Positions 16,784 through 63,400 of a DNA stretch of 64,000 nucleotides are shown here, one piece after another (position 1 is the first letter of the stretch; the number at the start of each line of letters is the position of its first letter). This stretch comes from a virus (Duplodnaviria > Heunggongvirae > Uroviricota > Caudoviricetes): positions 1 through 64,000 of the IMG/VR virus record IMGVR_UViG_3300008120_000059; one strand, given 5' to 3'. The notes under the pieces were generated by a model. It did no database searches. It was given only the letters and a program-made list of their open reading frames with translations, and was not told the DNA's origin. A program made the position numbers and the translations under genes.

Positions 16784-17465
16784 ATCTCTGAAGTTTAAAA
16801 TCCCCGTTATGATGTATTATGTAAGTATTGTTTTCTATCCAATCCCCACAATTTAAATACCTCACACCCTCAATAATTTTATCTTCAGGATTGTGTATGT
16901 GACCACATATCACAGTGTCACACTCTCTTTTTTTTGCCTGTCTAACCAGTTCTACCTCAAAACTCGTAATAAATTTAACAGCCTCTTTAACACTGTCCTT
17001 TAAAAATTTAGAAAGGGACCTCTTATGTCCAAATTTTTTTAGAGTCCTATCTATAGAAATCGCAATATCGTAACCAATGGAACCTAAAATACCTAACCAT
17101 TTTAACTTAACCACACCATCATAAAGGTCTCCATGGGTAATAAATACATTACCATATTTGTATTCATTACAAATTTCAATGTTACCAAAAGATAAGTCCG
17201 TATATTGTCTTAAAAATTCATCATGATTACCAGTAACATAAATTACTTGAGTACCTCTTTTGGAATGTGATAATATTTTTCTTATCACATTGGTGTCGTT
17301 TTGTTTCCATCTGAACTTCCTCTGTAACATCCAACCATCTATGATATCACCAACTAAAAACAAATAAGTTGGTTCATATTTTTTTAGGACTTCAAGCACC
17401 ATTTCAGAATTACTACCCTTAGTACCAAGGTGAACATCTGAAATAAAAAGTGCATCTATTTTCAT
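16770..17465 (-). CDS. LpxH-family metallophosphoesterase (UDP-2,3-diacylglucosamine hydrolase-like)
   Basis: ISDVHLG, GDIIDGW, GNHDEF, GHIHNPE, CGDW motifs align with LpxH signature blocks; overlaps GT2 gene. Confidence 0.65.
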   Translation of the reverse strand: MKIDALFISDVHLGTKGSNSEMVLEVLKKYEPTYLFLVGDIIDGWMLQRKFRWKQNDTNVIRKILSHSKRGTQVIYVTGNHDEFLRQYTDLSFGNIEICNEYKYGNVFITHGDLYDGVVKLKWLGILGSIGYDIAISIDRTLKKFGHKRSLSKFLKDSVKEAVKFITSFEVELVRQAKKRECDTVICGHIHNPEDKIIEGVRYLNCGDWIENNTYIIHHNGDFKLQRYATL

Positions 17466-50665: not shown

Positions 50666-50746
50666 ATTGTTTTCTATTTATTATTATTACAAAAGATAAC
50701 GAATAAAAAACAATAAACCAAAATATTTATAAAAAAACTTAAAATC

Positions 50747-50932
50747 ATGGGATGCGGATGTAAAAAAAGAAACCAACCTGTTAGTAATCAAACGGTAAAC
50801 ATTCAACTAACCGAAGGTGGTTCAACACCTCCACAGGAGATTACAATTATGGAACAACAACTTGACCAAATCATAAAAAAGGTTGAGGAGATTAACAATC
50901 AAACTAACGAAGAAAACACAGAAGGACAATAA
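50747..50932 (+). CDS. hypothetical protein (61 aa)
   Basis: ORF; first plus-strand gene after divergent region. Confidence 0.35.
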   Translation: MGCGCKKRNQPVSNQTVNIQLTEGGSTPPQEITIMEQQLDQIIKKVEEINNQTNEENTEGQ

Positions 50933-51008
50933 ATTGTATCGGACAGTCTAATAAATTGTCCGATATTTTTTGTCTTTTATAATATATATAAATTTATATA
51001 CTTATATT

Positions 51009-51209
51009 ATGCCTAAACAACAAACAAAACTAACCAGCGTTAACATCATAGATGATGTTTATAAAAGATTTAAGATAAAAAGTGTAGATGGTTCAATCAA
51101 TCTACAAAAATTAGTAAACCGAGCTCTTGACCTATATAACACTAGAGAAGATTTTAGAAAACAAATTGATAATCACAACGGTCTTGCACCAAACGGTTCC
51201 AAATTTTAA
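51009..51209 (+). CDS. hypothetical protein (66 aa; start moved to ATG 51009)
   Basis: Internal ATG gives MPKQQTKLTS... Confidence 0.4.
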   Translation: MPKQQTKLTSVNIIDDVYKRFKIKSVDGSINLQKLVNRALDLYNTREDFRKQIDNHNGLAPNGSKF

Positions 51210-51258
51210 GTTGTGAATTTTATTTCTTATATTATCATCAATATTTTAAAACAAAAAA

Positions 51259-52716
51259 ATGATTACAATAGGTTACAGTACAAGAGAGTCCAACCCAAAA
51301 TTTCAAGAATATTTAAAAAAAACTTGTGGACACCCCAAAGTTCAAGTTATTGAAAAAGTAAACAATGGTGAAAAAAGTCTTTCACAAACTTACAATGAAA
51401 TTATTCAAGAGTCGATTCATGATATTGTCGTACTTTGTCATGATGACATTTACTTTAATACGACTTCGTGGGGTAGAAAATTAGTCAAACATTTTGAAGA
51501 ATCTGACTACGGGATTCTCGGTGTTGCCGGTACAACCAATATTCATGAGAGTGGTAGGTGGTGGACAGATAATACCAAAATGGTTGGTATTGTTAATCAT
51601 GAAAATGAGGGTAAAAAATGGGAATCGAGATATGCAAATGGAATCCCAAATTCAATTCACGAAGTTTGTTTAGTGGATGGTTTATTCATTGGAATCCACA
51701 AAAACAGAATAAAACACACTTTTGATGAGTCAGTACCGGGTTTTCATTTTTATGATATGGTATTCTGTACTAGCAATCACTTAAGTGAGGTAAACATCGG
51801 TGTTATATACAACATAAGAATCACTCACAAATCAATCGGAATGACCAATGATTCTTGGGAAAAGAATAGGGAATTTTACATTGAAAAATTTAAAGAGAAC
51901 CTACCAATTAATATAACACCAAAAATTGATTATGACATAACCAAACCAAAACAGTTTAAAGATAAATTTAATTTAATAGTTCAAACATCAAACGATAATG
52001 AAAATTTAATTCAGTTTTTTGAAAACATAAAAAAATTACCAGTGTTTGATAGTTTACAGATTTCACTCATCTCGACGGATACCAATATAGACAATATTAG
52101 AGAATTTGAATCTGAAAATATTAAAATTTACGAGGGTTTTTTTGATACATTAAATAAAAACTTATCAGTACTGAAATGGGATGAATCGTTTATGGAATCA
52201 AAAACAGATTTGTTATTTTTCAGTAATGATACTGTTACCGTATTGAACGACGTTTTCTCAAGTATGTATTCAATATTTAAGAGTGAAAAAAATACTTTTG
52301 GGTGCGTCTTTCCTACAGTATTAGAAAACGACCGAACAATTTTTTCAAATGGATTGGATATAGTTCAAAACAACGAACAGTTCAATTTAATTTTTAAAAA
52401 CAAATCATCTTTTTTCAATATTTTACACGGACACTTTCCAAACAATTTTGGTAGTATTAGTGACTTTTTTGCCACTACATCTACAAATTTAAAAATGATT
52501 GATTGGTTTGATATTAATTTAGAAACATCAATTTATAACTTAGATTTTGCGTTGAAAACTTTACTTAAAAAACGTAAAACATTCATTGACACAAACAGTG
52601 TGGTAATGATTGATATGGCATCAAAATTTGAAAAGGTTGATGTTGAATTAAAACAAGTCTTAGGTCAGTACATAAACTCACCTGAAATTAGAAAAAATAT
52701 CAAACAATTAAGATGA
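51259..52716 (+). CDS. two-domain putative glycosyltransferase (485 aa); N-terminal GT-A-like
   Basis: N-terminal Rossmann-like region with VVLCHDD (DxD-like); first gene of glycan island. Confidence 0.5.
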   Translation: MITIGYSTRESNPKFQEYLKKTCGHPKVQVIEKVNNGEKSLSQTYNEIIQESIHDIVVLCHDDIYFNTTSWGRKLVKHFEESDYGILGVAGTTNIHESGRWWTDNTKMVGIVNHENEGKKWESRYANGIPNSIHEVCLVDGLFIGIHKNRIKHTFDESVPGFHFYDMVFCTSNHLSEVNIGVIYNIRITHKSIGMTNDSWEKNREFYIEKFKENLPINITPKIDYDITKPKQFKDKFNLIVQTSNDNENLIQFFENIKKLPVFDSLQISLISTDTNIDNIREFESENIKIYEGFFDTLNKNLSVLKWDESFMESKTDLLFFSNDTVTVLNDVFSSMYSIFKSEKNTFGCVFPTVLENDRTIFSNGLDIVQNNEQFNLIFKNKSSFFNILHGHFPNNFGSISDFFATTSTNLKMIDWFDINLETSIYNLDFALKTLLKKRKTFIDTNSVVMIDMASKFEKVDVELKQVLGQYINSPEIRKNIKQLR

Positions 52717-53492
52717 TAAAAATTGTATCGGGATTTACAGAAAAAGGTGGTTCTACCACTTTTTTTATAAACTTAACAAATTTCTTAAATGAAAATGGTA
52801 TTGATTGCACATTTTACGGTAATCAGAATTACCATTTAGACAAATGTAAATCAGGGAACATTGAAAAAGATTTAAAGTATGAATCTGATGATATTGTAAT
52901 TACCCATTTTTTACAACTACAGGAAAGACCACCTGTTAAAAAAGTTATTTTGTCTTGTCATGAAAAATGGTGGTTCCCTGTTGGTAAAATTAAACAGTAT
53001 TGGGACCTGTGCGTGTTTTTACATGAAGAGCATCGAAAATATCACTCGGATTACAGGGGTGATTATGTAATAATACCAAACATCAAAGAAAATTTAATTA
53101 TTTCAAATAAAGAGCTGGTAAGAAATATTGCAGGAATTATTGGTACAATTGAAGACAGAAAACAGACCCATGTGTCAATACAAAGAGCATTAAAAGACAG
53201 GTGTGAAAAAATCTATTTGTTCGGTCACATCGGTGACCAAAACTATTTTGACAAATTGGTAAAACCTTTAATGAATCCAAGAGTAATTCATTACGGTCAC
53301 ACCACCAATAAACAAGAAATGTACGATATGATTGGTAAGGTATATCACTCATCAAAGGGTGAGGTTGCTTGTTTGGTTAAAGATGAATGTTATTTAACCG
53401 GTACAGAGTTTTATGGTAATGAAGAGACTATGAATGAAGTTTCTAAATTAAGTAACGAAGAGATATTAACACTTTGGAAAAACATATTTTAA
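52713..53492 (+). CDS. compact GT-B-like putative glycosyltransferase (259 aa)
   Basis: GGSTTFFINLTNFLNENG N-terminal and ...YHSSKGE... C-terminal blocks; weak. Confidence 0.4.
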   Translation: MIKIVSGFTEKGGSTTFFINLTNFLNENGIDCTFYGNQNYHLDKCKSGNIEKDLKYESDDIVITHFLQLQERPPVKKVILSCHEKWWFPVGKIKQYWDLCVFLHEEHRKYHSDYRGDYVIIPNIKENLIISNKELVRNIAGIIGTIEDRKQTHVSIQRALKDRCEKIYLFGHIGDQNYFDKLVKPLMNPRVIHYGHTTNKQEMYDMIGKVYHSSKGEVACLVKDECYLTGTEFYGNEETMNEVSKLSNEEILTLWKNIF

Positions 53493-53493
53493 A

Positions 53494-54216
53494 ATGAAGA
53501 TACACGCACATATACTGTCATGGAATGAAGAAAAAATATTACCATTCACATTGGATTACTATAGTACAATCTGTGAAAAAATATTCATATACGATAATAT
53601 GTCAACGGACTCCTCTGATGAGATTTATAAGAGGTACCCAAAAGTTGAGGTTATTAAATGGGATAGTGGTAATGAAATAAATGAAATTAATTACGTAAAC
53701 ATTAAATCCGAAGAGTATAAAAAAAGAAGTAGAGGTCAGGGTGTTGATTGGGTTATAGTTTGTGACTGTGATGAGTTTATATACCATGAAAATCTTATGG
53801 ATAAACTTCAAGAGTACAAAGAAATGGGTATAACCGTCCCAAGAATAGACGGTCACGACATGGTTAGTACTGAATTTCCAATATACGACGGTGAATTCAT
53901 TACAACAAAAATTAAAACAGGTTCACAAACGTATGAACCAATGTGTAAAAATATAATTTTTCATCCTGATTTAGATATAAAATACGGCATTGGTGGTCAC
54001 AGTTTTAATTCTGTTGATGGTAAATTTTCGGATGAGCGGGAAATAAAACTTCTTCACTATAAATTCTTGGGTAAAGACTACGTGAAGAACATTTACATTT
54101 CAAGAGCAAAGAGATTGTCATCGTTCAATAAACAACATAAATTCGGTGAACATTATTTTAATTTACCATTCAATTACATGGACAGCATGTTAAAAGAAAA
54201 TTATCAAGTTATATGA
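53494..54216 (+). CDS. GT-A-fold glycosyltransferase (Glyco_tranf_2_4-like)
   Basis: ILSWNEEKILPFTLDYY ... IYDNMSTDSSDEI ... CDCDEF. Confidence 0.5.
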   Translation: MKIHAHILSWNEEKILPFTLDYYSTICEKIFIYDNMSTDSSDEIYKRYPKVEVIKWDSGNEINEINYVNIKSEEYKKRSRGQGVDWVIVCDCDEFIYHENLMDKLQEYKEMGITVPRIDGHDMVSTEFPIYDGEFITTKIKTGSQTYEPMCKNIIFHPDLDIKYGIGGHSFNSVDGKFSDEREIKLLHYKFLGKDYVKNIYISRAKRLSSFNKQHKFGEHYFNLPFNYMDSMLKENYQVI

Positions 54217-55034
54217 GGAAAATACTTATATCGGATTTTACCATTAAAGAAGTACCTCACGGTGGTTCTGAATGGGTGAATCAAGTTTTAATTGATAGAT
54301 TTAATCTTGAGTTTGAATATTCAAACCAAGTCAAGTCATTTGATTACAACGCCCTGTATATTATATCAAATATTTCTTTGATGAACCCAAACTTGGTTAA
54401 TCAAATACAAAATTTGAACTACGTCATTATTGAAAACGATTATAAAATATGTGCAAGTAGACACCCATGGAGATATACCGACAACATAATTCCGATTGAG
54501 GAAAGAACCAACTATTCTCTTTACCGGAATGCAAAAGCGGTATTTGTTCAAACAACCGACCACATGAACGTTTATCTTAAAAACGATGTTGTTGCTAATT
54601 TTATAAATCTGAATAGTTCGATATGGTCAAATGAGGACTTAGAATTATTGAGGAATTTAAATAAATCCAACAATGTTAAAAACGACAAATATTCTGTTTA
54701 CTATACAAATAATTGGATAAAGAACACCCAAGGTAGTCTGAAGTATTGTTCTGAAAATAAATTACCGGTCCATATTCTTAAAGAATCTAAAGACAGAGTT
54801 GAATTTTTAAGTAATATGGCCAAATGTAAAGGTATTGTGTTTTTCCCGATAGCAAGAGAAACTTTTTGTAGACTGGTTGTTGAGGCAAAATGTTTAGGTT
54901 TGGAAGTAATAACGACACAAAATTATGGTGCAAGTTTAGAAGAATGGTTTAATAGGTTATCAGGTGATGAATTAATTGATTTCTTAGAAACTAACACTTT
55001 AAAAAATTTAGAAATCATTTCAACTTATATATGA
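54213..55034 (+). CDS. GT-B-like (GT4-type) putative glycosyltransferase (273 aa)
   Basis: C-terminal ETFCRLVVEAKCLGLEVITT resembles the GT4 E-x7-E region. Confidence 0.4.
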   Translation: MRKILISDFTIKEVPHGGSEWVNQVLIDRFNLEFEYSNQVKSFDYNALYIISNISLMNPNLVNQIQNLNYVIIENDYKICASRHPWRYTDNIIPIEERTNYSLYRNAKAVFVQTTDHMNVYLKNDVVANFINLNSSIWSNEDLELLRNLNKSNNVKNDKYSVYYTNNWIKNTQGSLKYCSENKLPVHILKESKDRVEFLSNMAKCKGIVFFPIARETFCRLVVEAKCLGLEVITTQNYGASLEEWFNRLSGDELIDFLETNTLKNLEIISTYI

Positions 55035-56023
55035 TATTATTTTGTTACGGCACAAGACCTGAGTATATTAAAATAAAAAAATTAATAGAAATGTGTGGGG
55101 AAAGTATTCCCCATAAAATTTTATATGTTACCCAACACAAAGATATTGTATTGGGTGATTTTGATTATAAATTATCCATTGATGATACGTGTGAAAATAG
55201 ATTGGATAGTATTATGTCATCCGTATTTTTAAATTTTAAAAAAGAATTTTTGGAAGGGGTTACACATATACTTATCCAAGGGGACACCGCAACCGCTCTT
55301 TCATTATCCCTAATAGGATTACACCATAAAAAAGAAGTGATTCATTTAGAAGCGGGATTACGGACATATGACTACAATCACCCTTACCCCGAAGAAATGT
55401 ATCGGCAGTTAATTAGTAGAATTTCAAACTATAATCTTTGCCCAACAGAAAGTAACAAGATGAACTTAGAAAATGAAAAAGTTCAGGGTAAAAATTTTGT
55501 AGTTGGCAATACCGTATTAGATAATCTTAATAAAGAAAATATTACATACGAAAATAAAGTCTTAATCACTTTACATAGAAGAGAGAATCATGAGATGATG
55601 TCGGAGTGGTTTGATGTTATCAATCGATTAGCAAAGAATAATCCTGAATTAAAATTCATTCTTCCAATACACCCAAACCCAAACGTCATAAAACACAAAC
55701 ATATATTGACACATGTTGATGTTATTGAACCATTAACCCATGATAAATTTATTGAGGAATTCAAATCCTGTAAATTACTAATTTCAGATAGTGGGGGTGT
55801 TCAAGAAGAGGCGTCGTTCCTAAATAAGAAAGTTATTGTATGTAGAGAAAAAACTGAGAGACCTGAGTCCTTGGGTAAAACGTCTTTTATATGTAAAAAA
55901 CCCATTGACTTAGAAGGTATTTTTTACGATATTATTAACGATTTCCAAACAGAATATGATTGTCCTTTTGGTGATGGTAATTCTTGTGAAAGAATCATTG
56001 AAATATTTAGAAAAATTGTATGA
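55031..56023 (+). CDS. UDP-N-acetylglucosamine 2-epimerase (non-hydrolysing, WecB/MnaA-like)
   Basis: GTRPEYIK, HLEAGLRTYD, ITLHRREN, HPNPNV, SDSGGVQEEA, PFGDGNSCERI blocks align with WecB along the full length. Confidence 0.75.
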   Translation: MILFCYGTRPEYIKIKKLIEMCGESIPHKILYVTQHKDIVLGDFDYKLSIDDTCENRLDSIMSSVFLNFKKEFLEGVTHILIQGDTATALSLSLIGLHHKKEVIHLEAGLRTYDYNHPYPEEMYRQLISRISNYNLCPTESNKMNLENEKVQGKNFVVGNTVLDNLNKENITYENKVLITLHRRENHEMMSEWFDVINRLAKNNPELKFILPIHPNPNVIKHKHILTHVDVIEPLTHDKFIEEFKSCKLLISDSGGVQEEASFLNKKVIVCREKTERPESLGKTSFICKKPIDLEGIFYDIINDFQTEYDCPFGDGNSCERIIEIFRKIV

Positions 56024-56748
56024 GTATAACGGTAATATTAAATGGGTATAAAAGACCACATGTTCTCCAAAAACAATTGGAATCAATTAGAAATCAAAGT
56101 GTCCAACCCGAATCAATTTTATTTTGGCAAAATTCTGGTTCTCAATTTGATGAGGGACTAACCAAAGATTTAATTCACGCATCTTGTAATAGTAATTTAG
56201 GTGTGTGGGCAAGATTTGCATTTGCTTTAAATGCCAACACAGAATATATTTGTGTTTTTGATGATGACACAATACCGGGTAAACTATGGTTAGAAAACTG
56301 TCTAAACACCATGAAAATTCAAGAAGGTTTATTAGGAACTATCGGTGTAAAATTTCACACAAAAAACTCTTATTGGCCAGCAACAAGAGTCGGTTGGGAC
56401 CAACCTAACGAAGAAATTGAAAAGGTCGACATTGTTGGTCACTCGTGGTTCTTTAAAAGAGAATGGTTATCGATATTTTGGAGAGAATTACCTGAAATCA
56501 ATCAGAGTAAATTAGTTGGTGAGGATATGCACTTTTCATATACATTACAGAAATACGCAAATATCGGAACTTACGTTCCTCCCCATCCTAAAGAAAATAG
56601 AGAAATGTGGGGTAGTATACCAGAATATGCATGGGAACATGGAACTGATTCCAACGCAATTTCCGTAAATCATTCAAATATGAATTTAATGGGTGAAGTT
56701 TACCGTGGGTATGTAAATAAAGGATTTAAGACAATATTAAATGATTGA
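56020..56748 (+). CDS. GT-A-fold glycosyltransferase (242 aa)
   Basis: ITVILNGYKRPHVLQKQLESIRNQ ... VFDDDTIPG (DxD). Confidence 0.5.
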   Translation: MSITVILNGYKRPHVLQKQLESIRNQSVQPESILFWQNSGSQFDEGLTKDLIHASCNSNLGVWARFAFALNANTEYICVFDDDTIPGKLWLENCLNTMKIQEGLLGTIGVKFHTKNSYWPATRVGWDQPNEEIEKVDIVGHSWFFKREWLSIFWRELPEINQSKLVGEDMHFSYTLQKYANIGTYVPPHPKENREMWGSIPEYAWEHGTDSNAISVNHSNMNLMGEVYRGYVNKGFKTILND

Positions 56749-57460
56749 AAAGTATATTGAAGATTTTAATTCGTTTTGGGAAAAGATAGATAGTCGAACT
56801 AACTTTTCTTTTGTTAGATATGCCGATGGTGAAGTGATGTTAATGAATAATTCACCGATAGAAAAGAATACACAAGCGTATCAAAACGATAAATGGTTTT
56901 CGAGTGGGGGACAAACCAAATTAGGTGTGGATTTAAATGAATGTATAGGGTTGAACGACCCAAATTTTTATTTTGCAATATCCTCCAAAACTGATAGTAT
57001 TAGAGACTATAATTTTTTATATGATAGAATACAAAATAAATCAAACATTACATTTGCTAACCTATGGATTAACGCAAATTACAAAGAAAATATATCAAGA
57101 ATAAGAAATATAAATCGAGATGTTGTTTTAATTTGTAATGAAAATTGTGATTTAAAAAACATACCATTTAGTGTATCAGAATTTGTACCGTTCCCTAATG
57201 ATTGTGTAAACTATTGGGAAGAACATAGAGATTCGTTTTTAGAAAAAATATACAATGTTTCTTCAAAATATAAAGATACTTTATTTATCGTATGTTGTGG
57301 ACCAACATCTGCTGTTATCATAAAACATATGTTTACAAATAATAGTAATAACACTTATATTGATTTTGGTTCCGCATTAGATGTATTCATACATAATAAA
57401 ATAACTAGACCATACATGTATGAAGGGTCACAATATCATAATCACATATCAAAATTTTAA
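56741..57460 (+). CDS. hypothetical protein in glycan island (239 aa)
   Basis: ORF with overlapping start. Confidence 0.45.
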   Translation: MIEKYIEDFNSFWEKIDSRTNFSFVRYADGEVMLMNNSPIEKNTQAYQNDKWFSSGGQTKLGVDLNECIGLNDPNFYFAISSKTDSIRDYNFLYDRIQNKSNITFANLWINANYKENISRIRNINRDVVLICNENCDLKNIPFSVSEFVPFPNDCVNYWEEHRDSFLEKIYNVSSKYKDTLFIVCCGPTSAVIIKHMFTNNSNNTYIDFGSALDVFIHNKITRPYMYEGSQYHNHISKF

Positions 57461-57466
57461 TTCAGT

Positions 57467-58057
57467 ATGAATAATGATTTTTGTGTCATAGTACAAGGAC
57501 CTTCAGACTACGTTAAAGAATTAAAAAACGCTTGGACTGGTTATGATTTGATTTGGTCAACATGGCAAGGTGAAGAATCAAAATACGATACTAATGATGT
57601 TGTCTTATTCAACAGTATTCCACACGATAGGGGTGTACAAAATATAGCACTACAAAAAATATCAACTTTGAATGGAATAATGAAAGCCAAAGAAATAGGT
57701 TACAACAGAGTCCTTAAATGGAGAAGTGATTTACTACCATCTAATGCAAATAGATTAGTTTCCACATTTAAAAAAGAGTGTGTAAATTTTTTGACTTGGC
57801 ATAATGAAGGAAAATATTTTGTTGATTATTTTGTGGAGGGTGAAATAGATACGGTGTTTGATATTTGGAATGTATCTACCATACACGATGAGTATTCGGA
57901 AAAAATAATCACGGAAAATATAATATCACTTAACTATAAAAATATAAACTTTATGGGTGGCGAATTAAGTAATGATAATGAAATTTTTTGGTTAAAACGA
58001 AATATTAATTTGTCCACATATAAAGACGCACCATGTTATAGTATGGTGGTGATTTAA
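57467..58057 (+). CDS. hypothetical protein in glycan island (196 aa)
   Basis: ORF. Confidence 0.45.
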   Translation: MNNDFCVIVQGPSDYVKELKNAWTGYDLIWSTWQGEESKYDTNDVVLFNSIPHDRGVQNIALQKISTLNGIMKAKEIGYNRVLKWRSDLLPSNANRLVSTFKKECVNFLTWHNEGKYFVDYFVEGEIDTVFDIWNVSTIHDEYSEKIITENIISLNYKNINFMGGELSNDNEIFWLKRNINLSTYKDAPCYSMVVI

Positions 58058-58068
58058 AAATTATAAAA

Positions 58069-58803
58069 ATGATAGATAATTCAAAATTTATTGACGACGC
58101 ATTTACTCAAGATGAATTAAATAGGGGTGCCTTTACCGATTTGAATGGTAGATGTCCATTATGGACAACAAAAATGATTAATGTTATAAAAGATAAAATT
58201 GACTTTAATGATGTCAACACAATATTAGATATTGGGTCAAGAGATGGTTGCCAAAGTTTAGAGTTAAATAGATGGTTTCCACATGCTAAAATATATGCGT
58301 TTGAACCAGTAAAAGAAAACTACGAATTTACAGTTAAGAACGTTGAGAAAATTAATAACATAAAAGTTTACCAATACGCAATAAACAATTACAACGGTAA
58401 AACTAAATTTTACGAAGTTTATAATGGAAATGTGGGTGCCAGTTCTTTATTACAGACAACAAACCACTGGCGTTCATCTCAGTGGGCCCAAAAGGAAACT
58501 GAGGTTGACTGTATTGTTCTTAGTGATTGGTTAAAAGAAAATGATATTAAAAGTGTTGATTTGATTTGGATGGATGTTCAAGGTGCAGAAAATATCGTAT
58601 TAGACTCTCTAAAAGAATATTTAAATGATGTAAAAATAATAACCACCGAAGTAGGGTTACAGGAATTATATCGTGGTTCTACAAGTAAATCTGAACTAGA
58701 TGAAAAACTAAATAGGTTTATACCAATAGACGAGTCGCCAGAATCTTCAAACACAGAAATGGATGTGGTTTATATCAACAAAAATTTAACACCTTATGGA
58801 TAA
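58069..58803 (+). CDS. FkbM-family SAM-dependent methyltransferase
   Basis: ILDIGSRDGCQSLEL ... AFEP ... IWMDVQGAE blocks. Confidence 0.6.
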   Translation: MIDNSKFIDDAFTQDELNRGAFTDLNGRCPLWTTKMINVIKDKIDFNDVNTILDIGSRDGCQSLELNRWFPHAKIYAFEPVKENYEFTVKNVEKINNIKVYQYAINNYNGKTKFYEVYNGNVGASSLLQTTNHWRSSQWAQKETEVDCIVLSDWLKENDIKSVDLIWMDVQGAENIVLDSLKEYLNDVKIITTEVGLQELYRGSTSKSELDEKLNRFIPIDESPESSNTEMDVVYINKNLTPYG

Positions 58804-59497
58804 TAAAATTTGTTACGTTACTTATACAAATTCAAAATGTTCAGATATTTTGGATATGTTCTTGTTAGAACAAAAAAAGTACACAAACTTACCGATGTAT
58901 TTTATTACAGATGTAATGATACCCGAGCAAATTTGTTTTTTATATGAAAATCAAGAACCTTATTATGAATCATGGTTAAAGTGTTTATCTTCAATACCAT
59001 ATGACTATTTTATATACTTACAAGAAGACTTTATTCTTTATAACAATGTCAGTCATGATAAAATTTTTAATTACCTCGATTTTTTACATGATAACCAAGA
59101 ATATTCGTTCATTAGATTGTTAAAATCGGGGTCTGTTAAAGATAAAAAAATTTATGAGACCTTATATGAAATAGAATCCGACAATAAAGATATATTTTCT
59201 ATGCAACCAACTATTTGGAAAAAAGATGATTACATTAAAATCATGAAAGGTACCAAAAATAATATGTGGTTAGAGAATGAAACATATAGAAATTTTATGA
59301 TAGAAAACAACATCAAAGGTTTATATCATTACGATGGTGAAAACAAAAGGGGGTTGAATCATTTTGATAGTTCTGTTTATCCATATATAGCAACGGCTTT
59401 AGTTAGAGGTAAATGGAATTTATCTGAATACCCTAATGAACTCTCTCCATTAATAAATGAATATGAAATAAACGTAAATGTTCGGGGGATACATTAA
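58796..59497 (+). CDS. hypothetical protein in glycan island (233 aa)
   Basis: ORF. Confidence 0.45.
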   Translation: MDNKICYVTYTNSKCSDILDMFLLEQKKYTNLPMYFITDVMIPEQICFLYENQEPYYESWLKCLSSIPYDYFIYLQEDFILYNNVSHDKIFNYLDFLHDNQEYSFIRLLKSGSVKDKKIYETLYEIESDNKDIFSMQPTIWKKDDYIKIMKGTKNNMWLENETYRNFMIENNIKGLYHYDGENKRGLNHFDSSVYPYIATALVRGKWNLSEYPNELSPLINEYEINVNVRGIH

Positions 59498-59499
59498 TA

Positions 59500-60174
59500 A
59501 TGAAAATTGTTCTATCTTTTTACACCAACAATAAATTTAGTAACACCGTTCAAAAATTAATCGGATATTATAATTCACGTGGTTTCAATGATATCCGAGG
59601 ATTTAAATCTGAAGATGTTAAGAAAGGTATTTTTTATGAAAACCATAAAGAAATATTAGATTGTGAAACGGGTGATGGATTTTGGTTGTGGAAACCAAAA
59701 ATTATTTTAGATATTTTGAATGAATTAGAAGATGGGGATGCATTAATTTATACCGATGCCGGTGATTTAGTTGATGTTGATTATAATACGATTGCAAATT
59801 ATTTGAAAGATAATGATTATTATTTTACAAATTGGAATGGAAATCGTTGGCCTCAAAAAATATGTACAAAAAGAGACTGTTTTATCTTGATGGATTGTGA
59901 TGAAGAAAAGTTTCATGAAACACCACAGATGGAAGCAGGATTTATCATCATTAAAAAAACCAAACAAATGATGGAATTTGTTCACGATTATTTTAAGTAT
60001 TGTAGTATTAAACAGATAGTTGACAATGAACCAAATCAAATTGGTGAGAATTTTCCAAATTGGCAATTCCATAGAAATGACCAAAGTATATTAACTAACT
60101 TGGTTGTGAAACATAATTTAAAATTTGATTATTGTCTCGATTATAGAATAAAATACAACGTATATATACCATGA
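59500..60174 (+). CDS. hypothetical protein in glycan island (224 aa)
   Basis: ORF. Confidence 0.45.
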   Translation: MKIVLSFYTNNKFSNTVQKLIGYYNSRGFNDIRGFKSEDVKKGIFYENHKEILDCETGDGFWLWKPKIILDILNELEDGDALIYTDAGDLVDVDYNTIANYLKDNDYYFTNWNGNRWPQKICTKRDCFILMDCDEEKFHETPQMEAGFIIIKKTKQMMEFVHDYFKYCSIKQIVDNEPNQIGENFPNWQFHRNDQSILTNLVVKHNLKFDYCLDYRIKYNVYIP

Positions 60175-60932
60175 AATTTATTGCATTAAATTATAATTAT
60201 GACTTAAATAAAATGTCCCAAATCGGTCGGAAATGGGCGTTTGATGTCTACAAAAATAAAGAGTTTATATCTGATTATTCATCAGCATCTTATGCTTCAT
60301 TTATTGATAAGAATAGAAAAAGTATTTTACATCTTTATACTGATGATGTTGAGGGTATGAAAGAAAAAATGAACAAGTATAACATTGACCAAGACAGAAT
60401 TATTTATATTGATTACACGGAACAACTTACCAAATACAATGAAAGTCTTAATTATAGTTTTACAGTTTTAAATGATTTTATTAATTATGCAAAATCAGAA
60501 ACTGAGTACACTGTAAAAATCGATAATGATTTATTTTTTCATTCGGAATTACCACAAATTGATGATAATTCTATTATGGTTTGGAAGTATGAAAGAATCG
60601 TTAGGAATGGTGACCCGAGATGGGGTGAAATAAAAATATGTAAACAGGTTACAAATGATTTAGATTTTAAAATTTATAATTTAGGTATTTTTGGGTTGCC
60701 CGCGGATTACAATATTCACCAAGCAAAAAAAATTATGGAAGATATGATATCGGTAGACATTTCAGATGTGACTGATACAGACTCGAAGATTTATCATTGT
60801 TGTGAGCAAACGGCAAATAATTGGATTTTTCACAAAGAAAATTATAACGTGATTGAAACGTATAATTATGTTGACCACCTGTTTGATAGAAAAGGTGATT
60901 GTATAGAATTATCAAAATATCTTTTAAAATGA
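60171..60932 (+). CDS. hypothetical protein in glycan island (253 aa)
   Basis: ORF. Confidence 0.45.
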   Translation: MKFIALNYNYDLNKMSQIGRKWAFDVYKNKEFISDYSSASYASFIDKNRKSILHLYTDDVEGMKEKMNKYNIDQDRIIYIDYTEQLTKYNESLNYSFTVLNDFINYAKSETEYTVKIDNDLFFHSELPQIDDNSIMVWKYERIVRNGDPRWGEIKICKQVTNDLDFKIYNLGIFGLPADYNIHQAKKIMEDMISVDISDVTDTDSKIYHCCEQTANNWIFHKENYNVIETYNYVDHLFDRKGDCIELSKYLLK

Positions 60933-61696
60933 AAACATCAGTAGTATTGACAATTCACAACAAGGAATTCTTAATGAACCAAGTGGTGAGTAACTTGGTA
61001 AATAATTTATCAGAACTGAATGACCAGATTGTAATAGTTTTTGATGGTTGTACAGATAATAGTGAAGGTATTGTTCGTGACAATTTAAAGAGAGTTAGTA
61101 ATAAAAAAATTGATTACCTGTATGCCGACAATGTTTTTGAAACCAAAGCAAATAATATTGGTCTAAAGTCTGTTATAAATGATTATGTGGTCTTAATCCA
61201 AGATGATATGGTTGTCACAGAAAAAGATTTTGATAAGAGGATGTTGGAACCGTTCATAAAATATAGTGATGTGTTCGCTGTAACATCTTTTGTTGCTCAC
61301 AATAACATCTATAATGAACAAACAAAACAAATAAATTACATCGATATTGCACATAAAGATAACTCATCAAGAGATATTTTTTATGCTAGAGAATATGGTA
61401 ACAGAGGTCCACTAATGTACAACTATAATGACGTGGTCAAATTAAATTTTTTAGACGAATATTTTTCACCCCAAAATTATGATGATATGGATATGTCCAT
61501 GAGAGCATTCAAAGAACTCGGAAAAGTGTCAGGTTTATATACGATAGATTATATTTCCGAACCTGGATGGGGGACCACTAGACAAAAAAATCAATCATTA
61601 CATAATAATTTAGTTTACGTAAACGCAGCAAAAATACTTGAAAAACACAGGGATTTATTGTATAATAAAGACAAATATAAAGAGGATAGAGAATGA
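60929..61696 (+). CDS. glycosyltransferase family 2 (start moved to ATG 60929, ATGA overlap)
   Basis: MKTSVVLTIHNKE ... VFDGCTDNS ... IQDDM. Confidence 0.6.
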   Translation: MKTSVVLTIHNKEFLMNQVVSNLVNNLSELNDQIVIVFDGCTDNSEGIVRDNLKRVSNKKIDYLYADNVFETKANNIGLKSVINDYVVLIQDDMVVTEKDFDKRMLEPFIKYSDVFAVTSFVAHNNIYNEQTKQINYIDIAHKDNSSRDIFYAREYGNRGPLMYNYNDVVKLNFLDEYFSPQNYDDMDMSMRAFKELGKVSGLYTIDYISEPGWGTTRQKNQSLHNNLVYVNAAKILEKHRDLLYNKDKYKEDRE

Positions 61697-62310
61697 ATAA
61701 TATAGAGCTAAAGACATTTATGATTAATCATAATGTTAATATCCATGGTGTGATTCACGTTGGTGCACATTTTGGTCAAGAAGATGAAGTTTATAAGGAA
61801 TTGGGTATTTCAAACAGAATATACTTTGAACCTCTATCGTCTAATTTTGAGACCTTAAAAGAAAAAATAGATGATGACGCAATTTTAGTTAAACTGGCGT
61901 TAGGTAATGAAAAGAGAAAAGTTTCTATGTTTGTAGAATCCTTTAATAAAGGTATGTCATCCTCAATATTAGAACCGAAATTACATTCTGTTCAATTTCC
62001 TCATATCGTTTTTGATTCTGTAGAAGAAGTTGAAATGGATAGATTGGATGATTTAAATTACGATTTTTCAAAATACAACATGATGAATATCGATGTTCAA
62101 GGTTTTGAATTAGAGGTTCTCAAAGGTTCCGTGAATACATTAATCAACATTGACTACGTTATTGTAGAAATAAACAGAGCCGAATTATATAAAGGTTGTC
62201 CACACTTTGATGAAATAAACAATTGGATGACACATCATGGGTTTACCTGTGTTGAACAATTTTGGTGGGGTAATAATTTTGGTGAGGGATTTTTTAAAAA
62301 AATAAAATGA
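61693..62310 (+). CDS. FkbM-family SAM-dependent methyltransferase (second copy)
   Basis: HVGAHFGQE ... YFEP ... NIDVQGFELEVLKG. Confidence 0.6.
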   Translation: MNNIELKTFMINHNVNIHGVIHVGAHFGQEDEVYKELGISNRIYFEPLSSNFETLKEKIDDDAILVKLALGNEKRKVSMFVESFNKGMSSSILEPKLHSVQFPHIVFDSVEEVEMDRLDDLNYDFSKYNMMNIDVQGFELEVLKGSVNTLINIDYVIVEINRAELYKGCPHFDEINNWMTHHGFTCVEQFWWGNNFGEGFFKKIK

Positions 62311-63368
62311 AACGAGTATTAGTATTGGGTGGTGGCGGATTTATTGGTGGTCACCTAGCAAAAAGATTAAAAAATGAAGGAAACTACGTAAGAGTAGTTG
62401 ATATAAAAAGACACGAATATTTTGATGAGAAAGACTTTTGTGACGAATTCTTAATATATGACCTTACGGACCCAAAAAACGTATCATCAGTAATGAGATT
62501 AGAAGAATTAAATGGTACGATATTACCGTTTAATTATTACAAACAACCATATTCAACTGAGGTCCCATTTGATGAGGTTTATCAATTAGCTGCCGATATG
62601 GGTGGTGCTGGTTACATCTTCACTGGTGAAAATGACGCGAATGTTATGCACAATTCTGCAATGATAAATTTAAATGTTGTAAATGAATCAGTGAAGACAA
62701 AAGTTAAGAAGATTTTTTATTCATCATCGGCATGTATGTATCCTGAACACAATCAATTAGACCCTAACAACCCAAATTGTGAAGAATCATCAGCATATCC
62801 CGCGAATCCTGATTCAGAATATGGTTGGGAAAAACTTTTTTCGGAAAGGTTGTACTTGGCTTTTCACAGAAATCACGGTTTGGATGTTCGAATTGCTAGA
62901 TTTCATAACATATTTGGTCCATATGGTACGTGGAAAGGTGGTAAAGAAAAAGCACCAGCAGCTATGTGTAGAAAAGTTGCCGAAATGTTAGACGGTGGAG
63001 AAATTGAAGTTTGGGGTGATGGTCAACAGACTCGTTCATTCTTATATGTGGATGAATGTGTTGAAGCGGTTTTAAGACTAATGAGACAAGACTCTTTTTT
63101 GGGTCCTGTAAACATTGGTTCTGAAGAGAAAGTAACAATTAATGATTTGGCTCAAATGGCTATAGATATTTCAGGTAAAGAAATTTATATCAGAAATATT
63201 GGTGGGGAAGAATTTAAACAGAAGTATGGATATAAATGTCCTGTTGGTGTGAGGGGAAGAAATTCAGACAATAAATTATACCACGAAAAAATAGGTTGGG
63301 TTGTTAGTGAACCTCTGTTCTATGGAATGGAAAAAACCTATAAATGGATTAATAGTTTAGTTAAATAA
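62307..63368 (+). CDS. GDP-mannose 3,5-epimerase (GME)-like NAD-dependent epimerase
   Basis: VLGGGGFIGGHLAKRLK (GxxGxxG); LAADMGG; FYSSSACMYPE; RFHNIFGPYGTWKGGKEKAPAAMCRK; WGDGQQTRSF; VRGRNSDN; near full-length collinearity with plant GME. Confidence 0.75.
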   Translation: MKRVLVLGGGGFIGGHLAKRLKNEGNYVRVVDIKRHEYFDEKDFCDEFLIYDLTDPKNVSSVMRLEELNGTILPFNYYKQPYSTEVPFDEVYQLAADMGGAGYIFTGENDANVMHNSAMINLNVVNESVKTKVKKIFYSSSACMYPEHNQLDPNNPNCEESSAYPANPDSEYGWEKLFSERLYLAFHRNHGLDVRIARFHNIFGPYGTWKGGKEKAPAAMCRKVAEMLDGGEIEVWGDGQQTRSFLYVDECVEAVLRLMRQDSFLGPVNIGSEEKVTINDLAQMAIDISGKEIYIRNIGGEEFKQKYGYKCPVGVRGRNSDNKLYHEKIGWVVSEPLFYGMEKTYKWINSLVK

Positions 63369-63400
63369 AAAAGGGGGTTATTGACCCCCTTCTTTTTTTT
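63368..63400. terminator. bidirectional rho-independent terminator (AAGGGGG-ttattga-CCCCCTT)
   Basis: GC stem flanked by A6 and T8 between convergent genes. Confidence 0.7.

Follow-up and report, generated by a model that had tools for sequence, protein, structure and literature searches.

The window analysed here is a 64-kb stretch of DNA that carries, near its 3' end, an island of glycan genes (Table 1). Overlapping starts and stops (4 or 8 nt at most of the ORF junctions) together with terminators at both ends establish that the island is a single transcription unit encoding 15 soluble proteins, none of which contains a hydrophobic or membrane segment. The initial annotation had counted 13 co-oriented genes over the same interval; its coordinates and orientation hold, but the number of ORFs is 15. 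The small gene before the unit ends in a terminator-like hairpin, downstream of which the unit starts, and the promoter-like site is followed by a TATAAATT box located approximately 15 nt upstream of the next ATG. The putative 66-aa ORF has no PDB match and is kept at the equivalent position in the related loci L001-L003, L168, L169 and L170. At the 3' end, the terminator reads AAGGGGGTTATTGACCCCCTT and then CTTTTTTTTC, its 9-bp stem including 5 GC pairs, and genes beyond it lie on the opposite strand.

Table 1. Features of the glycan island and its borders (window positions).
Feature	Position	Strand	Description
Terminator-like hairpin	50936..50966	+	12-bp stem, then T-run; closes preceding small gene
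Promoter-like site	50956-50983	+	TTGTCC-16-TATAAT, after upstream hairpin
66-aa ORF, putative	51009..51209	+	Immediately 5' of island
Glycan operon	51259-63368	+	15 ORFs in one direction, tightly packed, terminator on either side
O1, lead enzyme	51259..52716	+	485 aa, tandem GT-A + GT-A glycosyltransferase
O2	52713..53492	+	259 aa, compact GT-B, GT4-like, E217-x7-E225; conserved core
O3	53494..54216	+	GT-A glycosyltransferase, Glyco_tranf_2_4 (Pfam 3.2e-15, 57 bits); conserved core
O4	54213..55034	+	Probable compact GT-B glycosyltransferase, E216-x7-E224; conserved core
O5	55031..56023	+	WecB-like non-hydrolysing UDP-GlcNAc 2-epimerase (Pfam Epimerase_2 4e-60, 204 bits)
O6	56020..56748	+	GT-A glycosyltransferase, GT2 (Glycos_transf_2, 1e-6, 29.2 bits; cut-off 23.3)
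O7	56741..57460	+	Candidate GT-D-like glycosyltransferase, D29-G30-E31 invariant
O8	57467..58057	+	196-aa orphan; no Pfam or PHROG match
O9	58069..58803	+	FkbM-family SAM methyltransferase (Pfam Methyltransf_21 1e-19, 72 bits)
O10	58796..59497	+	233-aa orphan, phage-only family
O11	59500..60174	+	224-aa orphan; Pfam, PHROG and other family matches not significant
O12	60171..60932	+	253-aa orphan; family matches not significant
O13	60929..61696	+	GT-A glycosyltransferase, GT2 (Pfam Glycos_transf_2 1.9e-12)
O14	61693..62310	+	Second FkbM-family methyltransferase (Pfam 1.3e-16, 62 bits)
O15	62307..63368	+	GDP-mannose 3,5-epimerase homolog; SDR epimerase by Pfam
Intrinsic terminator, strong	63371..63391	+	Operon end, 3 nt past O15 stop codon

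Glycosyltransferase-like products number at least seven (GT-A, compact GT-B and GT-D-like) and contain eight GT domains. Alongside them are one WecB-like 2-epimerase, one GME-like epimerase and two FkbM methyltransferases; in four further products, the orphans O8, O10, O11 and O12, Pfam, PHROG and further family searches found no recognisable domain. The enzyme inventory given in the initial annotation is borne out by Pfam, PDB and fold evidence, with Pfam matches above curated cut-offs for O1, O3, O5, O6, O9, O13, O14 and O15. However, its description of a 'self-contained' pathway was too strong, because the 15 ORFs include no gene for making GDP-mannose or UDP-GlcNAc and no initiating polyprenyl-phosphate transferase, flippase, polymerase or transporter.

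The N-terminal domain of O1 belongs to Glyco_tranf_2_5 (Pfam, 2.9e-24, 86 bits, above the curated cut-off) and has an invariant H61-D62-D63 motif, one part of an O1 alignment with 51 invariant columns; the catalytic status of the C-terminal domain is uncertain. Foldseek analysis of the O1 AF2 model (pLDDT 92.5) places protein glycosyltransferases (LH3, COLGALT1, ppGalNAc-T) and, equally, polysaccharide polymerases (K4CP, PmHS2, LARGE1) among the top matches. O2, which has no match in Pfam or PHROG, is modelled as a compact GT-B/GT4 fold (pLDDT 91.9) whose top Foldseek matches are BshA, HepE, TarM and PimA. It is more conserved than any other gene of the island, and since the best 120 of its 760 homologs are 62-99% identical, the core genes are considered to be under strong purifying selection. 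Mean column identity is 73-74% in the O2 and O4 alignments. For O4 (73%), a PDB sequence search gave no match and the GT1 Pfam match is sub-threshold (2.5e-3), while the E-x7-E motif is invariant. The O3 family (cluster 26) is found in 15-16 loci.

Among the downstream genes, O5 scores 209.9 against TIGR00236 (cut-off 210.15) and would be a source of UDP-ManNAc. O6 is the final gene of the block held constant among close relatives. The GT-D-like Pfam match of O7 (1.2e-4) is below the cut-off and covers profile positions 10-209 of 210; its top PDB match, GalT1 (4phr), reaches an E-value of only 0.19. The position of O7 is a cassette-swap site, occupied in L169 by an MBL-fold gene and a divergent allele. 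O9 and O14 align to each other in hhalign with 100% probability, and O9 is predicted to O-methylate sugars. Homologs of O8 occur in 3 loci only and those of O12 in 4-5 loci, and O11 is missing from the relatives L001 and L170. O10 has no Pfam, PHROG or PDB match, and none of its 464 homologs carries a Pfam domain; 'HEDD' in its alignment consensus may represent a GT-A-like motif. O13 probably starts at the ATG at 60929 (255 aa) rather than at the TTG at 60899, since its L169 ortholog is called at 255 aa and the ATG forms an ATGA overlap with O12. O15 matches the Arabidopsis GDP-mannose 3,5-epimerase (2c59) with E=1.3e-87 (next family 1e-21), aligns at all of the catalytic residues (Ser143, Cys145, Tyr174, Lys178 and Lys217) and shares 56-58% identity with the 'nucleotide-sugar epimerases' of cyanomyoviruses; it would supply GDP-L-galactose or GDP-L-gulose. 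Judged by enzyme families only, the glycan may contain ManNAc, an L-hexose and O-methyl groups.

The surroundings of the island are phage-like and AT-rich, in agreement with the initial annotation: GC content is 0.29-0.34, GC and strand architecture run on unbroken between the island and its flanks, and 38 PHROG families, including helicase, thymidylate synthase and DNA methylases, match the 50 non-island ORFs (E<=1e-5). No virion structural genes, and no TerL, MCP or PolB, are present within the 64-kb window, which is part of a phage genome probably longer than 200 kb. The best helicase matches are to Bacteroides, Chryseobacterium and Flavobacterium phages (33-36%). The suggested host, a member of the Bacteroidota, is thus plausible, although the -7 promoter motif of that phylum shows no enrichment. 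A distant GT2 gene (16046-16783), earlier paired with an LpxH-like neighbour as a hint of lipid chemistry, is real and soluble; the neighbour has no PDB match and carries at best a generic metallophosphoesterase domain, so that the hint of lipid chemistry is not supported.

In metagenomic data O1 has 2729 homologs; the IMG/VR viral contigs that carry one number at least 569, the largest of 321 kb. The O1-type gene opens a series of 1-12 glycan genes, flanked as a rule by dUTPase and PhoH, and in most loci it is translationally coupled to the dUTPase/dCTP-deaminase gene of a replication/nucleotide module. Among the 85 loci compared, the genes occur in 70 different orders and their proteins fall into 165 clusters. 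Polytopic membrane proteins (at least two hydrophobic segments) are encoded by 0 of the 921 island genes, and none of the 85 loci has an initiating phosphoglycosyl transferase, flippase, polymerase, chain-length regulator, ligase or ABC transporter. Close relatives (88-94% nt) retain the first six genes and exchange the downstream cassettes at gene boundaries; L001, L169 and L170 are colinear with the window up to about 56.74 kb (80-91% nt). Even against a sister sub-family whose C-terminus differs, the O1 N-domain retains 59-67% identity, and sister islands encode GT11, GT10, GT6, GLF, DegT, rhamnosyl O-methyltransferase, GNAT and carbamoyltransferase. The island is therefore one allele of a widespread, fast-shuffling phage locus, in which a conserved tandem GT-A lead is followed by shuffling outer glycan genes, with a conserved GT-B, GT-A, GT-B trio between them in the sub-family of the window. 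To call it unusual, as was done initially, overstates the case, related islands having also been described (PMC7029224, PMC12619734).

No O1 homolog was found by tblastn in cultured phages, cyanophages included, and full-length O1 is absent from isolate bacterial genomes (185,579 species). Nothing there looks like a standard O-antigen locus of a host, the outcome that the initial annotation had set against its own reading, so that this objection falls away. This absence and the viral contigs together argue for a viral origin. Homologs of the N-domain occur in Bacteroidota isolates (27-32% identity), and full-length homologs in some MAGs (30-41%). In Nitrospirota MAGs the latter lie amid TPR-GT41 and TPR-GT9 proteins and FliK; bacterial O1 homologs elsewhere have neighbours without a consistent protein-glycosylation signal.

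The locus probably builds a complex sugar chain within the infected cell. Integral-membrane components are a feature of the known phage converters of host surfaces and of O-antigen/capsule loci in bacteria, and because export and lipid-carrier machinery is absent from the 15 window proteins and the 921 island genes, we favour, tentatively, a cytoplasmic pathway with a conserved core and a variable outer part acting on a phage-made acceptor, probably a virion protein. The core/outer division follows from conservation of the O1 N-domain, O2 and O4 while gene orders and cassettes vary. During infection, the enzymes would take host UDP-GlcNAc and GDP-mannose, turn part of them into UDP-ManNAc and GDP-L-Gal/L-Gul, and assemble an oligosaccharide of roughly 8-12 residues wholly on the cytoplasmic side. 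A conserved acceptor would receive its conserved inner core from O1-O4; strain-specific outer residues would be added by O6, O7 and O13, perhaps together with O8 and O10-O12, and O-methylated by O9 and O14. The acceptor would be a phage-encoded protein, probably on the virion surface. A protein acceptor is hinted at by the likeness of O7 to the GT-D fold, which to our knowledge is characterised solely in cytoplasmic protein O-glycosylation, by the Nitrospirota neighbourhoods and by the LH3, COLGALT1 and ppGalNAc-T matches of O1. Against a virion protein stand the equally good polymerase matches of O1, the position of the island amid nucleotide-metabolism/replication genes rather than late structural genes, the neighbours of bacterial O1 homologs outside Nitrospirota, and the use of GT4-like folds such as that of O2 as DNA glycosyltransferases (PMC13326640).

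It is conceivable, though less likely, that the soluble transferases instead hijack a host lipid-linked intermediate (e.g. Und-PP-GlcNAc) at the cytoplasmic face, and that a host flippase and ligase, or an oligosaccharyltransferase, export the altered glycan. The result would be altered LPS or capsule, or altered protein O-glycans if the host is one of the Bacteroidota, blocking superinfection or re-adsorption of progeny to lysing cells, which is the usual explanation for the glycosyltransferase islands of pelagimyophages and cyanomyophages (PMC7029224). Since soluble transferases can extend host undecaprenyl-PP-linked intermediates cytoplasmically, a host target is compatible with the lack of membrane proteins. 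The enzyme families (GT2, GT4, GT11, GT10, GT25, WecB, DegT, FkbM) are those of O-antigen/LOS loci, the early/metabolic neighbourhood suits host takeover, Bacteroidota isolates carry O1 N-domain homologs, and acceptors of the Und-PP-GlcNAc type are conserved, so that a conserved lead enzyme fits here too. However, host flippase and ligase would have to tolerate at least 70 or so different glycans, a chain of about 10 sugars is costly on a soon-to-lyse cell, and no lysogeny genes are seen within the window. Moreover, characterised phage serotype converters depend on polytopic membrane proteins, of which the island genes encode none.

Glycosylation of a hydroxylated pyrimidine in the phage DNA against restriction, as in T-even phages, RB69, DLP3 and RL38J1, appears improbable; the islands would then vary because of an arms race between the phages and type IV restriction enzymes. 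Phage DNA-glycosylation clusters resemble the island in their GT4-like compact GT-B enzymes, dedicated nucleotide-sugar genes, nucleotide-metabolism neighbours (the lead gene being mostly coupled to dUTPase/dCTP deaminase) and between-phage diversity. O2 shares the PDB templates 3mbo, 2gej, 7fg9 and 7qsg with proven or proposed DNA glycosyltransferases, and sister islands have UDP-galactopyranose mutase in common with the RL38J1 cluster (PMC13326640). However, the RB69, DLP3 and RL38J1 clusters centre on a base-hydroxylating ThyA-family/dioxygenase enzyme with dCTPase and dNMP kinase (PMC13326640), whereas the only ThyA homolog of the window aligns with true thymidylate synthases at E=3.6e-68, the canonical residues L143, C146, D169 and N177 being retained. 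Because N177 is kept, it is not a dCMP hydroxymethylase (N177D); because D169 is kept, it is not a 5-hydroxy-dCMP synthase either, for which D169N is diagnostic (PMC13326640). No dCTPase or TET/JBP-like gene is seen within the window, and 10-15 genes including fucosyl-, methyl-, acetyl- and carbamoyltransferases far exceed known phage DNA glycans, which reach three sugars (PMC13326640; for glycans on 5hmC, bioRxiv 10.1101/2023.12.21.572611). DNA hypermodification is thus weakened for the 64 kb covered. It is highly improbable that the island is a commonplace bacterial O-antigen/capsule locus, whether as host sequence, as a product of mis-assembly or as a recent, passive acquisition that does nothing for the phage. 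Its enzymes belong to families typically found in surface-polysaccharide loci of bacteria, with which the island also shares operon layout and extreme between-strain variability by cassette exchange, and some MAGs carry full-length O1 homologs; but this reading is contradicted by the continuous phage context, the dUTPase-PhoH-flanked locus on hundreds of viral contigs, the purifying selection, the lack of full-length O1 in isolates and the absence of Wzx, Wzy, ABC transporter and initiating transferase from the window and the 85 loci.

Hypervariable glycosyltransferase or 'LPS-gene' islands have already been described in T4-like pelagimyophages and cyanomyophages (PMC7029224). These are, like the phage analysed here, large aquatic myovirus-type phages with islands rich in glycosyltransferases and sugar-nucleotide enzymes of putative function. 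Their islands are, however, mixed with tail-fibre genes in a structural module ('host recognition cluster') (PMC7029224), whereas that of the window is a pure glycan operon with a conserved lead enzyme in a nucleotide/replication region; O15 is similar to epimerases of cyanomyoviruses, and tblastn found no O1 homolog in cultured cyanophages. The lineage of the window resembles, by description, the recently named 'moraphages', freshwater jumbo phages with predicted Flavobacteriia hosts, genomes of 200-307 kb, PhoH as a core gene and glutamine synthetase in some members (PMC12619734). Four of their core orthologous groups, a number equal to O1-O4, are annotated as glycosyltransferases without analysis, and variable islands are flagged as unexplored; that paper gives no account of the operon, lead enzyme, hypervariability or absent membrane components (PMC12619734).

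Giant eukaryotic viruses possess autonomous glycosylation machinery for chlorovirus capsid N-glycans and mimivirus fibril glycans (PMC9614988). The likeness drawn to them in the initial annotation is apt, the enzymes being soluble only: virus-encoded glycosyltransferases, some multi-domain, sugar methyltransferases and nucleotide-sugar enzymes occur in both, assembly is cytoplasmic without membrane export machinery (for the island, as read from its genes), and the island probably shares their plan of an inner core that is conserved and an outer part that varies. Their genes are scattered, whereas the island is a single compact operon with a bacterial host, and no sequence orthology was detected, BFVD matches of O1 being at the fold level only (9-12% identity). 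In mycobacteriophages, as Freeman et al. reportedly found in 2023, a phage-encoded cluster of soluble enzymes, glycosyltransferases joined in some phages by an O-methyltransferase, acts in the cytoplasm on capsid and tail-tube proteins. There virion glycosylation is said to be demonstrated, while for the island it is proposed; those clusters have few genes and an actinobacterial host, against 10-15 genes in the island type, and a hypervariable dUTPase-PhoH-flanked locus with a conserved tandem GT-A lead is not described for them. If the acceptor is a virion surface protein, the locus would be a virion 'serotype' locus, parallel to the glycosylation of chlorovirus and mimivirus capsids and of mycobacteriophage capsids and tail tubes.

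The glycan gene island spans positions 51259 to 63368, as the initial annotation had proposed, but comprises 15 consecutive ORFs on the plus strand (O1 to O15) rather than 13, with ATGA-type overlaps at most of the junctions. A Pfam run on the ORFs placed O1, O3, O5, O6, O9, O13, O14 and O15 above curated thresholds, which bears out the annotated inventory of glycosyltransferases, a WecB-like epimerase, two FkbM-family methyltransferases and a GDP-mannose 3,5-epimerase homolog. In full, the ORFs encode seven glycosyltransferase-like proteins with eight such domains between them, two epimerases and two methyltransferases, and the other four are orphans. As in O-antigen and capsule loci, glycosyltransferases and nucleotide-sugar modifying enzymes share one operon. 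This operon of soluble enzymes is conserved in its core and variable at its periphery. Megablast of the island against cultured phages gave no match, and no family was matched in a PHROG search of 10 island ORFs. No recorded protein was identical to O5, and an exact 45-mer search was likewise negative in IMG/VR and in the JGI metagenome collection.

Features of the island and of the surrounding window
Feature	Position	Strand	Properties
GT2 glycosyltransferase	16046-16783		soluble; PDB matches up to 7.8e-12
Neighbour of the GT2	16770-17465		no PDB match
Class I/II aminotransferase	23944-25053	-	369 aa; phrog_5879; adjoins helicase
PcfJ-like protein	40252-42087	-	611 aa
ThyA homolog	44439-45764	-	441 aa; active site L143, C146, D169, N177
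Glutamine-synthetase-like protein	47702-48826	-	374 aa; Gln-synt_N + Gln-synt_C; kept in close relatives L001-L003
Small ORF	50747-50932	+	61 aa; starts MGCGCKKRNQ...; acidic C-terminal half; own terminator after; kept upstream of the island in close relatives L001-L003, L168 and L169
Terminator-like hairpin	50936-50966	+	before start of island unit
Conserved small ORF	51009-51209	+	66 aa; upstream of O1; no match in PDB search
O1 (lead gene)	51259-52716	+	Glyco_tranf_2_5, above curated Pfam threshold
O3			Glyco_tranf_2_4, above curated Pfam threshold
O6, O13			GT2, above curated Pfam threshold
O15	62307-63368	+	extended SDR, GME (GDP-mannose 3,5-epimerase) homolog, above curated Pfam threshold
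Strong intrinsic terminator	63371-63391	+	3 nt past island end; opposite-strand genes beyond

The model of the lead enzyme O1 (pLDDT 92.5) has two tandem GT-A domains. Its nearest structures are the chondroitin polymerase K4CP, which is matched across both domains, LH3, heparosan synthase 2 (PmHS2), LARGE1 and COLGALT1. The H-D-D residues of the N-domain are invariant, while the DxD position of the C-domain is occupied by a single, partly conserved Asp. O2 has no Pfam or PHROG match, and its family of 760 members is without a Pfam domain. Its model, built from a 33-sequence alignment (pLDDT 91.9), is a compact GT-B fold nearest to the GT4 retaining transferases BshA, HepE, TarM and PimA, with an invariant E217-x7-E225. 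O4 gives a sub-threshold GT1 match and has an invariant E216-x7-E224. O7 scores 21.9 bits against the Pfam GT-D-like profile, under the cut-off of 27, with profile positions 10-209 of 210 covered; D29-G30-E31, the counterpart of the GT-D D-x-E motif, does not vary across 9 homologs, and a PDB profile search returned GalT1 weakly (E=0.19). For O13, the ATG at 60929 is most likely the true start, because the ortholog in the close relative L169 is 255 aa long.

The initial annotation had described five ORFs as domainless; O8, O10, O11 and O12 stay unassigned. Relaxed Pfam searches (E up to 10) returned nothing for O2, O8, O10 and O12 and chance-level matches for O11, and PDB profile searches with the O2, O4 and O10 families gave no match. 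The O10 family has 464 metagenomic members, none with a Pfam domain. All-against-all hhalign of the 15 island families detected O9 and O14 as the sole pair, so the orphans are not assignable by this means.

O5 scores 204 bits against Pfam Epimerase_2 (cut-off 30.6); it reaches 209.9 bits against the WecB equivalog TIGR00236, just under the cut-off of 210.15, and 37.7 bits against NeuC. O9 and O14 match Methyltransf_21 (FkbM) with 71.8 and 61.6 bits against a gathering cut-off of 22.7, and we infer that their substrate is a sugar hydroxyl. O15 matches the plant GDP-mannose 3,5-epimerase 2c59 with E=1.3e-87, the next SDR family following at E ~1e-21 to 2e-21, and it aligns all five of Ser143, Cys145, Tyr174, Lys178 and Lys217 (A. 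thaliana numbering). With the extended-SDR fold and these residues, O15 is a GDP-mannose 3,5-epimerase homolog and is predicted to have this activity. It is also 56-58% identical to genes labelled 'UDP-glucose 4-epimerase / nucleotide-sugar epimerase' in many marine cyanomyoviruses (S-SSM7, S-SCSM2R, S-B05 and others). These labels are probably wrong, as the encoded enzymes look like GDP-mannose 3,5-epimerases.

Homologs of O1 number 2,729 in the metagenomic protein collection (E<=1e-3), most of them 485-488 aa long, and an O1 alignment scan located the lead gene on at least 569 IMG/VR viral contigs of up to 321 kb. A tblastn search with O1 against 50,697 cultured-phage records found no homolog, and a scan of IMG/VR with O5 for close relatives returned none. 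We analysed 85 lead-gene loci, 7 from contigs encoding homologs and 78 of 80 taken from IMG/VR, the 80 being a best-scoring subset that includes near-duplicates. Genes were called by longest-ORF heuristics, proteins were clustered by single-linkage BLAST and membrane segments were screened by a simple hydropathy scan. The lead gene falls into two sub-families of ~486 aa (the type in the window) and ~541-547 aa; the N-terminal GT2_5 domain of the longer type is 59-67% identical to O1 and its C-terminus is different. In the ~486-aa sub-family, O2 almost always comes next after the lead gene and O3 and O4 usually follow. O2 and O4 have a mean column identity of 73-74%, above that of O1.

The usual upstream flank is a block whose last gene, a dUTPase/dCTP-deaminase gene, overlaps the start of the locus at the lead gene, and the usual downstream flank is PhoH. 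Between these flanks lie 1-12 genes, with a mode of 10 (36 closed islands), and the 85 loci contain 70 gene orders and 165 protein clusters. The commonest of these clusters are a GT11 fucosyltransferase-like protein (47 of the 85 loci), an SDR epimerase/dehydratase (43), an FkbM methyltransferase (41), GT2 (38), GT10 (37), a hexapeptide acetyltransferase (27) and a DegT aminotransferase (22); GT6, UDP-galactopyranose mutase, rhamnosyl O-methyltransferase, GNAT acetyltransferase and carbamoyltransferase also appear in the Pfam census of cluster representatives. At the lower extreme, the viral contig L081 has a lead glycosyltransferase of 499 aa (10001-11500) followed directly by PhoH and no further glycan genes, a one-gene minimal locus. 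Upstream of the conserved flank, locus L006 carries an APS-kinase-like gene, a sulfotransferase and a SET-domain gene (1-1545, minus strand), which hints that certain phages of the lineage may sulfate some substrate. On a 270-kb phage contig, locus L004 has a gene (1601-2641, minus strand) for a 346-aa LCIB_C_CA (limiting-CO2-inducible / beta-carbonic-anhydrase-like) protein, which adjoins the DNA polymerase B gene.

The variation was mapped at finer scale from four close relatives. L169 is 90.6% identical in nucleotide sequence over 50018-56746 and 94.5% over 57451-62834; the O7 position holds a divergent O7 allele and an extra gene for a 396-aa metallo-beta-lactamase-fold protein (Lactamase_B_3; L169 6733-7923), which sits exactly at the O7 cassette position. 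L170 is 87.7% identical through O7 and has a different distal half. L001 is ~80% identical and colinear from position 42.4 kb through O6 and mosaic beyond: O7, O10 and O14 retain 43%, 48% and 42% amino acid identity, O11 and O13 are missing, and two other genes occur. The breakpoints coincide with gene boundaries. The island is a stable proximal block (O1 to O6) with distal cassette exchange, like bacterial surface-polysaccharide loci.

In its lack of membrane proteins, however, the locus departs from such systems. Wzx/Wzy and ABC-transporter O-antigen or capsule loci have an initiating integral-membrane transferase of WecA/WbaP type, for which the island has no candidate: none of its 15 proteins has a transmembrane-like segment (Kyte-Doolittle, 19-residue window >=1.6), and in the 85 loci not one of the 921 island genes is predicted to encode more than a single membrane segment. 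Likewise, no Wzx, Wzy, Wzm or Wzt Pfam family occurs in the island or among the 25 most frequent of the 67 families matched in the census of 85 island clusters, and the hydropathy screen is negative too. Phage serotype conversion (gtrABC/Oac) employs a GtrA flippase, a GtrB bactoprenol transferase, a serotype-specific membrane Gtr or a membrane O-acetyltransferase, whereas the island is without membrane proteins. The sole PHROG 'GtrB-like' match in the window (8.4e-10) lies outside the island, among the 50 other ORFs. The initial annotation had also pointed to a distant GT2 and LpxH-like pair as a hint of lipid-linked chemistry. The GT2 is real, with PDB matches to K4CP and the 572-residue 'Glycosyl transferase' 5tz8, but its neighbour has no specific LpxH similarity, and the hint is thus not supported.

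The remainder of the window is AT-rich (GC ~0.29-0.39) and phage-like, with matches to 38 PHROG families among the 50 non-island ORFs (E<=1e-5). It encodes a UvrD-type helicase nearest to those of Bacteroides, Chryseobacterium and Flavobacterium phages (33-36%), thymidylate synthase, aminotransferase, glutamine-synthetase-like and PcfJ-like proteins, and DNA methylases, thioredoxin, NUDIX, polynucleotide-kinase-like and other accessory proteins. The PcfJ-like protein and the phrog_5879 aminotransferase are unusual accessory genes. The ThyA homolog, which reads '...LPPCH...QRSVDTFLGLPFNIASY', is longer than bacterial ThyA by three insertions: ~38 aa after residue ~152, ~35 aa after residue ~243 and ~67 aa after residue ~342; its counterpart in L001 is 452 aa long. 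No TerL, MCP or PolB marker is present in the window. It has no tRNAs and no virion genes, which marks it as part of the accessory or replication side of a larger genome.

A Bacteroidota host is plausible from the best phage matches of the helicase, the Bacteroidota homologs of the O1 N-domain and the moraphage study (PMC12619734). The Bacteroidota -7 motif TAnnTTTG is not enriched (107 sites against 89 +/- 10 expected) and is therefore uninformative; the T4 late-promoter box TATAAATA occurs at 10 sites against 10.4 expected, and sigma-70-like sites are at chance level. The window matches the description of the moraphages, jumbo phages reported in 2025 from freshwater, with genomes of 200-307 kb and Flavobacteriia as the predicted hosts, which have PhoH as a core gene, glutamine synthetase in 9 of 25 and four core orthologous groups annotated as glycosyltransferases (PMC12619734). 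It shares with them GlnA and four conserved transferases, and its relatives come from JGI, ENA and Logan metagenome assemblies.

The initial annotation had allowed that the island might be an ordinary O-antigen locus of a host chromosome. A scan of 185,579 prokaryotic species, with one genome each, found full-length O1 relatives (29-41% identity) on MAG contigs only, mostly of Nitrospirota and large sulfur bacteria, with one 11-kb contig binned as Methanobacterium. Isolates of Hymenobacter, Formosa, Pontibacter, Spirosoma, Salinimicrobium, Limnohabitans and Phytopseudomonas gave N-domain matches only (24-32%). The island is therefore not such a host locus, and passive carriage of bacterial DNA is effectively excluded. 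In two Nitrospirota MAG contigs (L101 1928-15010 and L102 3467-13743), full-length O1 homologs (32-33% identity) lie in a conserved bacterial cluster with GT2+GT9 fusion, TPR-GT9 and TPR-GT41 proteins, joined in L101 by a FliK-like gene. Such a cluster points to a cellular system of protein glycosylation, possibly flagellar, that is related to the phage lead enzyme. The neighbourhoods of bacterial full-length O1 are protein-glycosylation-like in Nitrospirota and inconsistent elsewhere, which makes them weak evidence for protein glycosylation.

Judged from their families, the island enzymes would be able to turn host precursors into donors of the UDP-ManNAc and GDP-L-hexose types, and they could transfer many sugars and add methyl groups. 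An oligosaccharide of ~8-12 residues would then be built at the cytoplasmic side on a conserved acceptor. We tentatively take this acceptor to be a phage-made protein, probably on the virion, a reading to which we give nearly an even chance. Four reasons favour it, none of them decisive. The fold that O7 resembles, GT-D, is known from O-glycosylation of proteins in the cytoplasm. A Nitrospirota O1 homolog lies among TPR-GT41, TPR-GT9 and FliK genes, an arrangement typical of protein glycosylation. Membrane components, on which the characterised systems of phage surface conversion and the export pathways of bacteria depend, are absent throughout the 85 loci. The protein acceptor is favoured, finally, by the known all-soluble viral glycosyltransferase sets, which modify virion proteins in chloroviruses and mimiviruses (PMC9614988), as soluble glycosyltransferases do in mycobacteriophages (PMC10527164, as cited in PMC12619734). 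These machineries combine several soluble glycosyltransferases with sugar-modifying enzymes and have no membrane or export part; the same is seen here.

Remodelling of the host envelope is, in our judgement, unlikely. Soluble transferases can work on Und-PP-linked intermediates of the host, and such remodelling is what is commonly proposed for the glycosyltransferase islands of marine myophages (PMC7029224).

Glycosylation of DNA appears very improbable. In its favour, the lead gene shows coupling to dUTPase/DCD, and GT4 folds also occur in DNA glycosyltransferases; documented DNA glycans range up to three sugars and include a galactofuranose-linked cluster (PMC13326640; bioRxiv 10.1101/2023.12.21.572611). 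The GT4-like GT-B fold of O2 shares generic PDB templates with DNA glycosyltransferases, but a fold by itself is silent on the acceptor. Against this reading, the enzymatic complexity of the island is far above that of known DNA glycans. N177D is diagnostic of dCMP hydroxymethylase and D169N of 5-hydroxy-dCMP synthase (PMC13326640); the ThyA homolog retains all four active-site residues and is therefore a canonical thymidylate synthase rather than either of these. Neither such a ThyA variant nor a TET/JBP-type dioxygenase was found within the 64-kb window.

A small ORF of 116-118 aa matching Pfam Gp23 (T4 major capsid protein) precedes the lead gene in several close relatives (L001 9654-10004; L002 3943-4293; L003 9187-9537; L170 256-612), with a 4-nt overlap with the lead-gene start in some. 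Either a fragment of a capsid gene or a small paralog could account for it. It looked like a candidate acceptor, and as a conserved partner it was rejected because it is missing from the window, L168 and L169.

Returning to the virion protein as acceptor, it is possible, with the balance somewhat against it, that in large uncultured phages of aquatic habitats the island acts as an O-antigen-like 'serotype locus' for the phage's own particles. A wholly cytoplasmic, membrane-independent pathway led by the conserved tandem GT-A enzyme would place a complex, methylated, strain-variable heteroglycan on virion proteins, and cassettes would be exchanged under selection by host defence, grazers or adsorption specificity. 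Bacterial viruses would then have their own equivalent of the autonomous glycosylation of giant viruses. The general idea has prior art in the hypervariable glycosyltransferase-rich islands of pelagi- and cyanomyophages (PMC7029224). The moraphage authors left 'genomic islands with variable composition' for later study, and neither the operon and its lead enzyme nor the missing membrane proteins and the cassette shuffling are described in their paper (PMC12619734).

The locus described here gives concrete content to the 'variable islands' left open by the moraphage study. To our knowledge, phage-encoded glycosylation takes three forms: DNA sugars, small virion-glycan clusters of actinophages and the untested 'LPS genes' of marine myophages. 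The locus exceeds all three in size, with 10-15 genes (12 kb here), and is organised differently, a conserved lead and core being followed by shuffled outer cassettes with membrane machinery absent throughout. It is also abundant (at least 569 IMG/VR contigs and ~2,700 lead-gene homologs). Whatever its target, the island is a rich source of orphan families and compact glycosyltransferases, and should the host envelope or DNA be that target, no other case of either kind would be as elaborate. Should it be the virion, bacteriophages would join giant eukaryotic viruses in making complex glycan coats of their own, and phage 'glycotypes' would be a variable trait of ecological relevance in adsorption, defence evasion and particle stickiness.
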